Below, piece after piece: positions 9,202 through 56,162 of a stretch of 64,000 bases of DNA. This DNA comes from Lytechinus pictus (taxonomy: Eukaryota). The first letter of the stretch is position 1. Each line of letters starts with the position of its first letter. Both the position numbers and the translations under genes were made by a program. The notes under the pieces were generated by a model, which was given only the letters and a program-made list of their open reading frames with translations, searched no databases and was not told where the DNA came from. Where the stretch lies: positions 30,010,001-30,074,000 of the forward strand of contig NC_087245.1 of assembly GCF_037042905.1 (NCBI RefSeq). The letters are read 5' to 3'.

Positions 9202-9410
9202 TTAGTCAATCGTCATATCCACTCTGGGGTCATCTACATCTTTGTTCCTCGTGAAGGACCTACTATCAGAACCAGTTCCAAGAGTGCTCTCTTTGACTCG
9301 TGATGATTTAGAGGTTGTCGAGGGTGGCTCGCTGACGTCACCGCACATGAGGACTTTACACAGACTCCAAACCCTCTTATTGACAGTGAAAGCAAGGAAG
9401 ATGTACGCAC
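9202..9410 (-). CDS. 7TM receptor last coding exon (end of TM7 and cytoplasmic tail)
   Basis: Acceptor ...TTCTCTTGAGCAG|; reads (G)AYIFLAFTVNKRVWSLCKVLMCGD...VDMTID*; phase 1 matches the preceding exon. Confidence 0.9.
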
Positions 9411-9756
9411 CTGCTCAAGAGAACAAAGAACAAATGAACACGTGTGGAAAACAAACAACAATAATAATTAAACACACTTAAAAGCAGTACACATGTCACG
9501 AGAATAAGAACAGTTTGGAATACTAACTTAGGGTTCGCCATGGTCCCAAATGGTTCATGAACTTTAATCAATTATTACACTGGTGAAGAAGTGTATAAAG
9601 AGCTCTCAGTTTGGAAAATGGATAATGCAGTTAAGGTTATGATAAAGCTGGCACACAATGACATCCCCTAACGTCCCAATCCGCTCATACGAACACACAC
9701 CACACATACTATCACACCCACCCTGACACACACACACAAAATACACTTCTTATACG

Positions 9757-11800
9757 CCTGTCCTAGACAGGTTGTATTACGGTATCACGCTCGGTGTCCG
9801 TCCGTCTATGCGTTTGTATGTCCGTCCGTTAACTTTTTCTTGTAAACGCGATAACTTCAGTTCAACTTAACCTAGGCTTATATGGTTTGGTGTGTATGAT
9901 ACTAGCATGGATCCCAGGAAGCCTATCCATTTTGAGGTCAAAATGTCAAAGTCAAGGTCAAAGTGACATGTTTTCATCTTACCCTTCTGCAGTCCTTGTA
10001 AACGCGATAACTTCATTTTGACTTGACCTAGGCTAATATAATGTGGTGTGTATTATACTAGCATGGATCCCAGGAAGCCTATTTATTTTTAGGTCAAAAA
10101 GTCACAGTGACACGATTTTATCTTACCCTTCTGCAGTCCTTGTAAACATGATAACTTCAGTTTAACTTAACCAGGCTCATATAATTTGGTGTCTATGCAC
10201 GGATCCATCACTGGCAGAGACCTGTCACTGGTAGAGTATCGTGGTAAAGAGCAAAGACCTGCTATCCAAGCGGCAGTCGGCAGTCTCTGTGAATGGTCTC
10301 ACACAAACAAAATGAACCTTAATCCCAAGAAATGTCAAACCATTGAGTTTTGTTTTACAAGGAATCTAACACCTCCCCCATTAGTCAGAGTTGGAAACGA
10401 ATTACTCCATCAGGCTGAATGTGTCAAACTCTTGGGTGTGCACATTCAAAGTAACCTGAAATGGAGTACACACATTTCTGAAATTCTCAAAAGTGCCAAC
10501 CGCAAGCTCTACATGCTACGTCTTCTGAAGAAGTTTGCCCTCACACCCTCTGATCTTCTCACCATTTATACTTGTTATGTGAGACCAGTCACAGAGTATG
10601 CGGCCCCCGTTTGGAATGCCGGGATCACCAAGGAGGAAGCAAGAAAACTTGAGTCGATACAAAAGCGAGCCCTACGAGTTGTATTAGGTGAAAGCTATAT
10701 ATCTTACGAGCAGGCACTTTTTGTTCTCAAACTGCCTTCGCTTGCTGATCATTGCAAGGCATTGTCTCTCTCATTCGCGAAGGACCTGGTGAAGCCAACA
10801 TCCCATTTTCGCCATCTCTTGCCAACCAGAGACTCGAATATCCGATCAACAAGGCATTCTAGACTATACACACAACTTAGATTCAGGACAAACAGATTAA
10901 GAGACAGTGTAATCCCATATCTTGTAAATCTATTGAATAATTTATAATCATTTACACACCTAACTGAATGTTTCCACTGACTGTTCCCAAATTTTTTCTA
11001 TTGTAACGTACATTATTTTGATATTCATATTTTGTTTATTTTGATTTATACATAGGTAAATACAAGTAATTATCTCCAAGAACTCACCTGTTTTATATCC
11101 TCTTTAATAAAACTACTCGTGTACTTCTTTTTTAATCCAAATATTCCTTTATGACAAAATATTATTTCATTATGACAAATCATACCTAGCTGGATAATTT
11201 CATACTTATTTCCTCCATAAACAGTACTTGAATGCCAAACAATGCTAAATGATGTTACCCAAGATGCCTTTTTCCGTAATTGTTGAACTGTTCTGAATTC
11301 CTTTCGTTGCACTGACTTAGAAACATGTATCCCAATATGATCTGTTTCTTCCTTAGTTTTTCATTTGTTGTATTATTATTACTATATGGATAATTTTTTT
11401 TTCCATATTTGTTAAATACCCAATCTCTTTAACTTTGTTCCTGTCTCTCTCCCTCTTATTTAATTTTGTCTTGCTTTCTAACAATGTTCTCACTACATGT
11501 ACTTCATTCTACCTCTGAGGCTTCCTTCTCATATGCTGGGTATTTCAATTACTTTCATATTTATGTATAATTATTTTGTAGAATAATTTCATTTTGATAT
11601 TTGCCTATTTTATTCTAAGTTGTATATTTTTTAAATGTCTGTATATGCCATCTGTAAACTGAATGTAATTCAGCCTTTGTTTGTTATTTTCAGTGAATAT
11701 TTGAAATAAATAAACCATTCAATCACAAATCCCAGGAATTCTATTGATTTTGAGGTCAGAAGGTCAAAGGTGAAGTCGCCACCTTCCACTTTTCTTGCTT
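9757..11800 (+). repeat. Interspersed repeat with GGTCAAAGGTCA-type internal units, split by a LINE insertion
   Basis: Units with ATCCCAGGAAGCCTAT...GAGGTCA at 9900-10190 resume at ~11725. Confidence 0.55.
10200..11722 (+). mobile_element. 5'-truncated LINE (CR1/L2-group) RT C-terminus and 3' UTR
   Basis: ORF 10186-10947 with W...NKMNLNPKKC, KLLGVHIQSNLKW, YVRPVTEYAAPVW, LESIQKRALR; AATAAA tail near 11705. Confidence 0.85.
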
Positions 11801-12024
11801 GACCAATAACATGCACTGTACCCTTTTGACACACTATACTCCACCTAATGGAGGATTGTAGGAGACAGTAGAAGAAGCAAAGAAGAAGTAGACGATGAAG
11901 AAGAGAATTTTAAGAAGAAGAATTAAAAACAAAAAGATGAAAAAGTAGTTTAAAGAAGAAGAAAGAGACAAGGAGGATGGAGAAGAAAAGTAAAAAGATC
12001 AAGCAGAAAAAACATTCACCTTAC

Positions 12025-12127
12025 CTTGGAGTCCGTTGAACACAATGAAGATATACCAAAGGGCGGTAATCCCAGATAAAGGAATAATGAATGCAGTGAT
12101 CCATGTAAACCCCATCAAAGTTGACAC
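12025..12127 (-). CDS. 7TM receptor exon encoding TM6-TM7
   Basis: TAG|GTGTCA...CCAAG|GTAAGG; VSTLMGFTWITAFIIPLSGITALWYIFIVFNGLQG, matching class B/adhesion GPCR LxGxTW and FNxLQG motifs. Confidence 0.93.
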
Positions 12128-12647
12128 CTAGGTATCAAATGGGTAATACAAATTCATACTCCATAGACAGACTTACATATTCCAGCTTAACTTATCCTCT
12201 GATCAGCTCAGAGTTGTATCAATGGAGACTATGTGATTACTTAATTGGAGTCTATGAAGTGATTAGTGTTTTACAAGTGACCCAAGCAGGAGAAAAAAAG
12301 TCTCTGGCTTTGGAACTAAATTTCAAAGAATGTTATTATTTTGCACGATGTGGGAAATTCTTCATTTCACTTTTTTTTTCATGGAAACATGTACACAGTC
12401 ATGTGGACATACATGTGGTATTAATTCAGTATGATATGTTAAACCGATTTTTCCTTCAATTACAGGGTTGACTTGAACAGCCAATTGAAAATAATCAGGT
12501 ATTTCTTTCCTTTGAAATTCCCTATTTATTTTCAAATATTCTTGGGCAGAAATGGAGACGCCTGTGAGTTTTTTACTGAGTTTTATTGTAAAATGTACAA
12601 AAGTGATCAGGGCCTGACTAAGATACCAAGATATATGTTATGCGTAC

Positions 12648-54049: not shown

Positions 54050-55185
54050 GGTTATGACAGCAATGTAATGATTACCTCCAAAATGGCCAAAGTTCAATGA
54101 CCTTAAATGACCTTTGACTTTGTTCACGTGACCTGAAACTCGCATGAGTTCAGCGATACTTGATTACTCTTAGGTCCATGTTTTATGAACTAGATCCATA
54201 CACATTCAGAGTTATGATGGTCATTCAACAAATACCCCCAACTTGGCCAAAGTCCATTGACCTTGGTCATGTGACCTGAAACTCACACAGGATGTTCAGT
54301 GATACTTGATTACTCTTATTTCCACGTTTTATGAACAAGACCAATACACTTACAGAGTTATGATGGTAATTCAACAAATACCCCCAACATGGCCAAAGTA
54401 TATTGACCTTAAATTACCTTTGACCTTAGTCATGTGACCTAAAACTTGCACAGGATGTTTAGTGATACTTGACTACTCTTGTGTCCAAGTTTCATGAACA
54501 AGATCCATACACTTTTAAAGTTATGATGGTAATTTAACAGATACCCCTAACATGGCCAAAGTTCATTGACGTTTGACCTTGGTCATGTGACCTCAAATTT
54601 GCTCAAGATGTGCAATGATACTTGATTACTCTTACATCCAAGTTTCATGAATGGCAAAGTTGGGATTCGAACTCACAGCCTTGCGACTATGAGTCCAATG
54701 CTCTAACCACTGGACCACACGACCCACAGCTATTCAACAGATACCCCCAACTTGGCCAAAGTTAATTGATCATAAATGACCTTTGACCTTGGTCATGTGA
54801 CTTGAAACTCGGGCAGGATGTTTTAGTAATACTTGATTAACCTTATGTCCAAGTTTCATGAACTAGGTCCATATATGTTTCAGGTTATGATGACATATCA
54901 AAAACTTAACCTTGGTTAAGATTTTGATGTTGATTCCCCAAACATGGTCAAAGTTAATTGATCATAAATGACCTTTGACCTTGGTCATGTGACCTGAAAC
55001 TCAAGCAGATTGCTCAGTAATCCCTAATTAACCTTATGGCCAAGTTTTGTGAACTAGGTCCATATACTTTCTAAGTTATGCTGTCATTTCGAAAAATTAA
55101 GCTTCGGTTAAGGTTTGGTGTTGACGTAGCTGCCGTCGGAGAAGCGGCACCTATTGTCTCACTCTGCTTTGCAGGTGAGACAAAA
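54050..55185 (-). repeat. Inverted copy of the 31186-32290 repeat family
   Basis: TGACCTTTGACC units; ends GCAGGTGAGACAAAAA. Confidence 0.85.
54653..54724 (-). mobile_element. tRNA-derived SINE head / tRNA pseudogene
   Basis: Minus strand GGTCGTGTGGTCCAGTGGTTAGAGC...GAGTTCGAATCCC (A and B boxes); acceptor stem does not pair. Confidence 0.65.
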
Positions 55186-55763
55186 ATGAATGTTTGTTTG
55201 ATAACATTGCACATTGATTGAGTTGATTTATTTAGAAATTATTGATTAATGATTGATAGGTAAAGGTTGATGCCCCAATTGTCAGAATTTATCATTAAAT
55301 CAACATTCTGCTCTGGACTTCATGCATACATGTAATAACAATCAGTCTCTCAACAGGAGTGGAGAACAGGAGGAAGGGGGGGGGGGGTAAATTAAATGTT
55401 CTGTTAACACTTATTCCATCAAACTACTTCTCCCACTTAAGTTCTATCTCACCCCCTATTCTCTTGATTCCCATGAACACATTGCTGAGATCCACATCAT
55501 AAAGTTGAAATGCTGCCCAAAAAGTGCAAAAATATGTCTCTTCCAGGAATCAAACCTAGACCCCCAGCTTAGAATGCTGGTGTCTTAACCACTAGACCAC
55601 ACAGATGGGGTTAGTGGTTAGGGCGAACCTGATCTGATTGTCTAGTGGTTAAGAAACCTGCATTCTTAGCTGGGGGGGGGGCCGGGTTCGATTCGGCCTC
55701 ACCAATTTTTCAAAGTGAAGGTAGCTCTAGGGAACCTTGATGTAAGTTACGCCTACCATTGTT

Positions 55764-55869
55764 TTATATATATATATATATATATATATATATATATATA
55801 TATATATATATATATATATATATATATATATATATAGAGAGAGAGAGAGAGAGAGAGAGAGAGAGAGAG
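55764..55869. repeat. (TA)n(GA)n compound microsatellite
   Basis: Direct reading. Confidence 0.97.
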
Positions 55870-56045
55870 TCTGCTTCGGTATATAAAGAATAAACGATGA
55901 TTGGTTTTCAAAATGCCGTCGGAAAAAAATCATATATATTAAAAGGAGCGTTGGGCTAAAAGATGGAAGGTAAAGTCACACTTCGTCAGTACCAATATGA
56001 CCAAAAGCCCCCCGAATATATGTATATATATATATTAAATTTTAC

Positions 56046-56162
56046 CATCTCGACACTCGAGTCCTTGAAAGCCAACTTGACACTTGCATGCATAGCCACC
56101 TCCATCTATATCATTACACAAGCCATGATTACATGAATTGTTGGTACAGTGTGCAGTCTTTC
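56046..56162 (-). CDS. 7TM receptor EGF-like exon (most 5' exon found)
   Basis: TACAG| ... GATG|GTAAA; KTAHCTNNSCNHGLCNDIDGGGYACKCQVGFQGLECRD; 117 bp, phase 1-1. Confidence 0.88.

Follow-up and report, generated by a model that had tools for sequence, protein, structure and literature searches.

An array of EGF and putative CUB modules on a probable Methuselah-like class-B receptor of the sea urchin Lytechinus pictus

Introduction

The Methuselah and Methuselah-like (Mth/Mthl) receptors form an ancient clade that has expanded in the sea urchin Strongylocentrotus purpuratus; in the available parts of the survey that describes them, some members carry a somatomedin B (SMB) domain and the Mth ectodomain is reported in arthropods only (PMC4768249, de Mendoza et al. 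2016). SMB receptors have also been described, in the accessible portions of two further papers, as NvX in Nematostella and PARF1 in planarians, together with an expansion in amphioxus (PMC3261222, PMC2246102). Here we describe a gene of the sea urchin Lytechinus pictus, RefSeq LOC129276704, on the minus strand of a 64,000-nucleotide stretch of contig NC_087245.1 (C1:30010001-30074000 of the 812-Mb genome; hereafter the window), from which it continues upstream. Its product joins a receptor body of this family to a long N-terminal array of alternating EGF modules and modules, termed X, that appear to be divergent CUB domains.

With the non-arthropod Mth/Mthl and NvX/PARF1 receptors, as far as the available parts of those papers describe them, the gene shares a class-B 7tm_2 domain, an SMB domain, the lack of a Pfam Mth ectodomain and of a GPS, and lineage-specific expansion including that in sea urchins (PMC4768249, PMC3261222). 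Unlike the gene, the receptors in the same parts have SMB as the sole extra domain reported and no EGF/CUB array, and the S. purpuratus orthologue XP_011672652 does not occur in the available supplement of PMC4768249. The SMB, DUF8401 and 7tm_2 architecture provides a body shared with the gene, whereas most of its members have a short N-terminus. Neither a description of an EGF-CUB Mth-like receptor nor the name DUF8401 turned up in our literature searches, which covered a minority of the subscription papers.

The adhesion GPCRs (G protein-coupled receptors), such as ADGRE/EGF-TM7, ADGRG6/GPR126 and CELSR, resemble the gene in their long modular EGF/CUB/SEA ectodomains and related seven-transmembrane (7TM) domain. 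However, they are defined by a GAIN/GPS directly before TM1, and the gene has no GPS by Pfam and falls in a separate 7TM clade. Fibropellin is a CUB-EGF protein. Tandem CUB domains alternating with a small disulphide module serve recognition in C1r/C1s, MASP, tolloid and the sea-urchin egg bindin receptor EBR1; none of these is a GPCR, and the likeness is one of analogy only. The nearest urchin analogy is EBR1, with its CUB-TSP1 repeats (PMC13672419, in its available parts).

Exon chain and transcript evidence

The sequence-only reading of the window had proposed nine in-frame minus-strand exons with canonical splice sites, 3821 nt in all, whose start lies outside the window, and the rebuilt chain agrees with it. 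The exons have AG acceptors and GT donors throughout, and with agreeing phases they join to exactly 3821 nt (~1273 codons) without an internal stop, the first six being phase 1-1 and the last closing with a stop codon (Table 1). Since a second copy on C6 and its near-duplicate on C34 both hold all nine as open, collinear exons, the chain is not a product of chance; the C34 locus is nearly identical to that on C6 and is probably a haplotype duplicate. Pfam finds EGF in the three short window exons (E 3.9e-6, 3.3e-4 and 5.8e-5).

Through the collinear C6 copy (86% identity), 11 more coding exons, all phase 1-1, were found upstream of the window. The full chain comprises 20 exons and 6104 nt and encodes 2033 amino acids with a single terminal stop, 1714 of the residues preceding TM1; this length is a minimum, because the signal-peptide exon was not found. 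The stalk holds at least eight EGF and at least seven CUB modules on 17 phase-1 exons, between which lies no stop and no terminal exon and whose order is identical in both copies. The 20 exons span ~196 kb, and the introns reach 35-40 kb. The order EGF-X-EGF-X-EGF-SMB-Cys-rich-7TM given by the earlier reading holds for the modules within the window, but at three EGF and two X modules it understated the stalk. A canonical calcium-binding type was rejected for the EGFs: its N-terminal consensus is present in none of the eight, and the hydroxylation motif in five of them.

Four read runs were mapped to window positions 9000-18500, a stretch that ends before the joints upstream of 17364. Spliced contigs joining 17254-17364 to 15139, the check proposed from the sequence, are present in run X1, a probable RNA run whose RNA status is a guess: the joint 15139/17254, from the last EGF exon to the SMB exon, appears in 2 contigs (depth 12.8), and the joint 9408/12023 in 1 contig, both with CT..AC ends. 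Contigs of the same run also lie along the large exon. The 12648/12127 joint is not among the 15 of 42 joints listed and is present in RefSeq models P0001 and P0006. Elsewhere, gene models of other urchins join X and EGF modules to the SMB body: P0013 of S. purpuratus, which is an older model, P0010 and P0011 of L. variegatus, and P0047 of Diadema setosum, all of them predictions and not transcripts; P0013 connects EGF6-CUB6-EGF7-CUB7 to the body, and the S. purpuratus model is without EGF8.

The RefSeq models of the locus, 916 and 945 amino acids long, begin in or just before the large exon, and they miss ~1,100 residues because the CUB modules escape Pfam. The start and 'signal peptide' of RefSeq model X1 were rejected, as they are an intronic polypyrimidine tract with no Met in the C6 and C34 copies. 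In RefSeq model P0002 of the C6 copy (~28019000), an unrelated transposase-like tail replaces TM6-7, probably by mis-joining.

Table 1. Features of the receptor gene. Positions are those of the window; from 72732 upward they continue its numbering beyond its end. CUB assignments are putative.
Feature	Position	Strand	Basis
EGF exon	205090-204980	-	C6 collinearity
X, two exons	201468-201322 + 166113-165898	-	C6 collinearity
EGF exon	159518-159408	-	C6 collinearity
X exon	158502-158131	-	C6 collinearity
EGF exon	132752-132645	-	C6 collinearity
X exon	124479-124165	-	C6 collinearity
EGF exon	84558-84445	-	C6 collinearity
X exon	82038-81712	-	C6 collinearity
EGF exon	76587-76462	-	C6 collinearity
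X exon	73067-72732	-	C6 collinearity
Exon of EGF-like domain 6 (at least eight in all, five of them upstream of the window), phase 1-1	56046..56162	-	Pfam, exon chain, C6 comparison
Phase 1-1 exon for the N-terminal half of CUB module 6 (divergent)	47999..48172	-	matches S. purpuratus model P0013
Phase 1-1 exon for the C-terminal half of CUB module 6 (divergent)	41823..41996	-	matches P0013 and P0011
Exon, EGF-like domain 7, phase 1-1	37851..37955	-	Pfam, exon chain
Exon, divergent CUB module 7 (module X), all-beta, CUB-like	33912..34247	-	AlphaFold2 pLDDT 83, structure matches
Exon of EGF-like domain 8; run X1 joins it to the SMB exon	17254..17364	-	contigs, Pfam
Large exon (2492 nt): linker, SMB, Cys-rich, SEA-like, pre-TM hairpin module, TM1-5	12648..15139	-	phase 1 in, phase 0 out
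Somatomedin B domain, inside large exon	14943..15056	-	Pfam PF01033, E 2.4e-6 on P0006 40-77
Cys-rich region, two N-x-x-C-x-x-C repeats; approximate limits	14067..14846	-	Pfam 38.1 DUF8401 (PF28443) on record, P0001
Ferredoxin-like, SEA-like fold; weak matches	13749..14066	-	Z 5-5.9, predicted model
Small beta-hairpin module closed by a disulphide, preceding TM1 where GAIN/GPS would stand	13359..13502	-	predicted model, alignment
Exon, TM6 to start of TM7 (LMGFTW, FNGLQG)	12025..12127	-	RefSeq models P0001/P0006
Last coding exon: end of TM7, cytoplasmic tail, stop	9202..9410	-	joint to previous exon in run X1

The receptor body and its family

The receptor body belongs to the described non-arthropod Methuselah-like/NvX family, with SMB, DUF8401, a class-B 7TM and no GPS. 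Its 7tm_2 domain matches PF00002 at E 8.2e-13 over profile positions 5-249 of 250. A predicted model of the 597-residue ectodomain (pLDDT 78, pTM 0.65) shows SMB, Cys-rich, SEA-like and hairpin modules followed by a low-confidence linker to TM1, and the hairpin module carries two invariant Cys in all 17 aligned family members.

No GPS (PF01825) was found by Pfam on the protein or at the locus, as the sequence-only reading had stated, and the same model matches 62 other places in the genome; the GPS end motif occurs in none of 165 fetched relatives. The GPS is absent, and absence of the GAIN domain is likely: no GAIN is among the structure matches listed, which cover only residues ~339-506 of the 597-residue model well, and before TM1 the model shows five short strands, not a GAIN-sized domain. 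Foldseek of the ectodomain returned no match at E<=0.001. No Methuselah ectodomain entry is among the structure matches listed, which barely cover the Cys-rich and pre-TM parts, and Methuselah_N (PF06652) was found neither on P0006 nor in any of 17 pre-TM segments nor in the genome. A possible resemblance between the pre-TM module and the C-terminal portion of the fly Mth ectodomain was set aside, the profile searches having given no support.

The family is large. The large exon gives 49 matches at ~25 loci of the L. pictus genome, and a profile of 21 ectodomains recovers 4779 representatives at E<=0.001 (2917 at E<=1e-10 and 566 at 1e-30), some of them through SMB alone; clusters with SMB, DUF8401 and 7tm_2 occur in molluscs, annelids and arthropods. 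The L. pictus paralogues L070/L072 and L077 match, by eye, XP_011660493 and XP_011662057 in the available supplement of PMC4768249. A 7TM tree of 52 rows separates 10 GPS-linked receptors of the L. pictus genome from 42 SMB-family rows, the gene among the latter, at 100/100, with outgroup rows that are partial exon pairs, a bootstrap that is not fully settled and no insect Mth or secretin root. In the same tree the gene groups with L070/L072 at 99/96, and their apparent S. purpuratus counterpart XP_011660493 stands in the Mth/Mthl clade in the available parts of PMC4768249. The phase-1 exons, the tree and the GPS scan support the earlier proposal of an invertebrate SMB-type class-B GPCR without a GPS that gained its stalk by exon shuffling.

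Additions to the N-terminus recur in this family. By a crude score, 17 of 19 scored paralogues have their best-scoring phase-1 acceptor just before SMB. Among 40 long relatives from the 150 best matches, Pfam finds LDLa in 2, SRCR in 4 and EGF in 1, and a pattern finds EGF in P0047; relatives with such add-ons come from brittle star, sea star, urchin and priapulid. Two L. pictus paralogues (C2:64248878-64251268 and C10:29127300-29131340) are each preceded, on their own strand and at less than 5 kb, by a pair of canonical CUB domains, those of the C2 paralogue apparently fitting phase 1-1 exons, and CUB is therefore not unique to this gene within the Mth-like family. What sets the gene apart is the long, degenerate array of alternating EGF and CUB modules, which is absent from the scanned long members except, in part, from the probable orthologue P0047. 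The earlier reading's remark that it recognised the architecture from no characterised receptor stands for the array, which our literature searches did not return, but not for the body, whose family is described, nor for add-ons as such. Tandem repeats of the SMB/Cys-rich unit in P0021, P0064, P0086, P0092 and P0120 represent another route to a longer ectodomain.

Module X as a probable divergent CUB domain

The sequence-only reading had taken X for a novel module, which was not borne out: judged from predicted structure and from sequence, X appears to be a divergent CUB domain and not a novel fold, a CUB-type jelly roll by predicted structure whose most distal copy reads as CUB by sequence. 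AlphaFold2 predicts nine strands for the window X exon (pLDDT 83). In a structure search of 48,161 chains, 19 matches reached Z>=8, and 15 of these are CUB domains, 5 assigned by entry title and 10 through domain ranges that we take to be correct; the best is TMPRSS6 (Z 9.6, root-mean-square deviation 3.3, 106 aligned), and the non-CUB rows at this level are SIDT (2), GOLD and a pilin. A feature search with P0013 22-280, useful as a lead only, gave CUB families in all 10 of the best family-bearing matches (top 0.90), the nearest matches of X in feature space being tolloid, C1s and MASP.

Sequence comparison points the same way for part of the array. Aligned by hhalign with 16 canonical CUBs of the L. 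pictus genome, X matches over 94 columns at E 2.3e-4, although with a probability of 44%. A genome-derived CUB profile scores distal module 1 at 13.5 and 19.7 bits in the two copies, with 0 of 300 shuffles as good in either; modules 2 and 4 are marginal. The CUB hallmarks are retained in the most distal module and decay towards the membrane. The array has the appearance of an EGF-CUB unit that was duplicated and whose copies have diverged to varying degrees. The canonical Cys and acidic residues of CUB are missing from the X modules, most of which have another Cys pair instead; the invariant Asp positions of the canonical CUB alignment are not conserved in the X alignments. In CUB domains the acidic residues bind calcium.

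Direct searches recovered little. A self-tblastn between the two X intervals gave no match, because the modules are too diverged. The PDB sequence search with an X profile returned spurious matches only, single X modules recovered only the three known loci in the genome, and a word-based search for X in longer proteins found none among 377 and 6425 candidates, which as cluster representatives make this weak evidence of absence.

Divergence between the two copies

The C1 and C6 copies were compared by the Nei-Gojobori method with a codon bootstrap, the CUB set comprising six of the seven modules (674 codons; the third CUB left out). The CUB modules are 69% identical, with a ratio of nonsynonymous to synonymous substitution (dN/dS) of 1.07 (0.85-1.39), as against 94% and 0.19 in TM1-5; the ratio is 0.48 for EGF, 0.60 for the Cys-rich region and 5.4 for linker plus SMB (dN 0.146, dS 0.027), this last over 63 codons only. 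The CUB exons contain 0 stops against 13.8 expected under neutral simulation, and 0 of 2000 runs were free of stops. Core columns of the CUBs have dN 0.10, and non-core columns 0.24 (0.21-0.28; dN/dS 1.19, 0.92-1.58), above the gene-wide dS point estimate of 0.16. The lack of stops together with a dN/dS near 1 implies rapid change of the surface over a conserved fold; this surface is evolving either freely or by adaptation.

A 2.1-kb element with terminal inverted repeats lies at window positions 51353-53429. It has at least four copies across the gene, and another, at C6 ~28097009-28099097, breaks the third CUB exon of the C6 paralogue.

Proposed working and alternatives

We think it probable that the locus is one Mth-like SMB/DUF8401 class-B GPCR gene whose EGF-CUB array serves recognition, relayed to the 7TM domain. 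An N-terminal phase-1 intron would have taken up the tandem array of at least eight EGF and seven divergent CUB modules, which, judging from the gene models, has been present in sea urchins at least since the split of Diadema and the camarodonts. From this architecture, the ~1,700-residue ectodomain may stand off the membrane as a rod with the EGFs as spacers. The CUB surfaces, given CUB biology and their fast divergence, would bind some macromolecule of the matrix, of a microbe or of another cell, and would probably need no calcium for this, because the acidic CUB motif is lost. The uncleaved SMB/DUF8401/SEA-like/pre-TM body would then transmit binding or pull to the 7TM and, by family membership, to a G protein; with the GPS absent and the GAIN domain likely so, neither GPS self-cleavage nor a Stachel peptide would be involved. 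Ligand, tissue, G-protein coupling and relay we infer. Seen from outside, the receptor would look like an adhesion GPCR, and that this design was reached independently seems, on present evidence, rather likely.

Several observations weigh against this reading. Of the 17 junctions that precede the SMB exon, a single one is backed by RNA, in run X1; the contig listed across 15139/17254 differs at 8 of 174 bases and may therefore stem from another allele or copy, and three 2026 RNA runs (one study, ~6% of each read) have almost no depth on the exons. The current RefSeq models, both of the locus and of its orthologues, begin at the large exon or within it, and no signal-peptide exon conserved in both copies appears up to ~59 kb upstream of EGF1. 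As to module X, Pfam CUB (PF00431) matches no X exon among those tried, the top Foldseek rows are other jelly rolls, with CUBs at TM-scores of 0.5-0.6, and against the genome-derived CUB profile X3, X5, X6 and X7 of the gene's own copy score no better than shuffles. The CUB dN/dS is no proof of positive selection, and in the C6 copy a 2.1-kb transposon splits the third CUB exon.

Some of these points sit well with a second possibility, that the gene is the same but its array acts passively, as a spacer or a bulky glycoprotein stalk, with surfaces that drift neutrally and with the ligand bound by the SMB/DUF8401 body as in stalk-less paralogues. The interval around the CUB dN/dS spans 1, the C6 copy has one broken CUB exon, EGF8 is missing from the S. 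purpuratus model and the canonical CUB motifs fade towards the membrane; yet non-core dN exceeds the gene-wide dS, the EGF spacers are constrained, the SMB/linker likewise shows an excess of amino-acid change, and the array has been retained since the Diadema split, so that we regard a passive stalk as unlikely. More doubtful still is a split in which the receptor comprises just the proximal modules while the distal EGF/CUB exons encode a secreted protein, either separate or ended by alternative termination, or in which the short RefSeq form is the main product. The short models, the lack of RNA evidence upstream of EGF8, the long introns and the missing start exon would fit such a split, but the 17 upstream exons run phase 1-1 in one order in both copies with no stop or terminal exon between them, the RefSeq X1 'signal peptide' dissolves into a polypyrimidine tract, and P0013 links two EGF-CUB pairs to the body.

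Two further proposals concern the membrane-proximal part. A SEA-like fold might replace the GAIN domain as a cleavable mechanosensor, self-cleavage or force unfolding freeing the stalk and activating the 7TM: residues 340-445 of the model match SEA-type folds (dystroglycan, cadherin-23, CELSR1 and MUC16) at Z 4.7-5.6, and ~17 low-confidence residues before TM1 are possibly a flexible tether. These Z values, however, are level with those of unrelated, generic ferredoxin folds, and the SEA-like region is the least conserved part across paralogues. The SEA cleavage motif is G-S, and none lies in the expected loop. We hold such a sensor to be very improbable, and hardly any weight attaches to a canonical adhesion GPCR, of EGF-TM7 or GPR126 type, that recently lost its GPS. 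The nearest solved 7TMs are indeed adhesion GPCRs (ADGRL3, E 6.9e-11), and EGF, CUB and SEA occur in vertebrate members, according to the available parts of PMC13197933; against this, the tree, with its partial outgroup rows and without a secretin or insect root, places the gene in the SMB family, and the 600-residue body is homologous across thousands of invertebrate proteins, the fetched ones all without the GPS end motif. The single Mth-like receptor with a recognition array thus remains our preferred reading. Its bolder form, a sea-urchin-specific and rapidly diversifying recognition receptor (for non-self, gamete or substrate) with seven variable CUBs under positive selection on a GAIN-less class-B GPCR, and so an independently evolved adhesion-type GPCR, is speculative and, on our estimate, unlikely.

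Other sequence in the window

A Pao/BEL-type long terminal repeat retrotransposon occupies 57173-62221 (+), inside the intron above exon 56162. Its coding region consists of several separate open reading frames (ORFs) with DUF1759, reverse transcriptase, Peptidase_A17, an integrase zinc finger and DUF5641, and sequence in its 3' flank, near 63687-64583, has a counterpart that matches it at 95-97% within a C34 intron of the gene. An interspersed repeat at 17408-17810, directly upstream of the EGF8 exon, has very high RNA depth in all four runs, with reads from other copies. Right after exon 41996-41823 lies a palindromic stretch of ~320 bases (41482-41795, 77% self-complementary), probably a small transposon; ORFs at 41315-41814 were rejected as coding, lying inside this repeat without a Pfam match. 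ORF fragments at 10171-10944, 26041-26607, 40010-40282 and 45528-46181 are presumably related to the C-terminal part of long interspersed nuclear element reverse transcriptases; Pfam gave no reverse transcriptase match for them. Diverged tandem arrays with periods of ~150-210 bases lie at 907-1870, 21570-24075, 31251-32210 and 54114-55124.

Implications

The invertebrate Mth-like SMB receptors number in the thousands, and our literature searches gave no ligand or mechanism for non-arthropod members. The gene corrects the annotation by ~1,100 residues absent from the RefSeq models. Its two copies, with CUB faces diverged to 69% identity against 94% in the 7TM, are predicted to have different binding partners, and they make the gene a testable candidate in an urchin that is tractable in the laboratory. 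The gene represents a new architecture from known parts and not a new mechanism: it shows that the Mth-like family can build ectodomains of adhesion-GPCR size by taking symmetric exons into one phase-1 intron, apparently without a GAIN domain. If the bolder form of our reading were true, the family would constitute a second platform for adhesion signalling, one that works without a tethered agonist.

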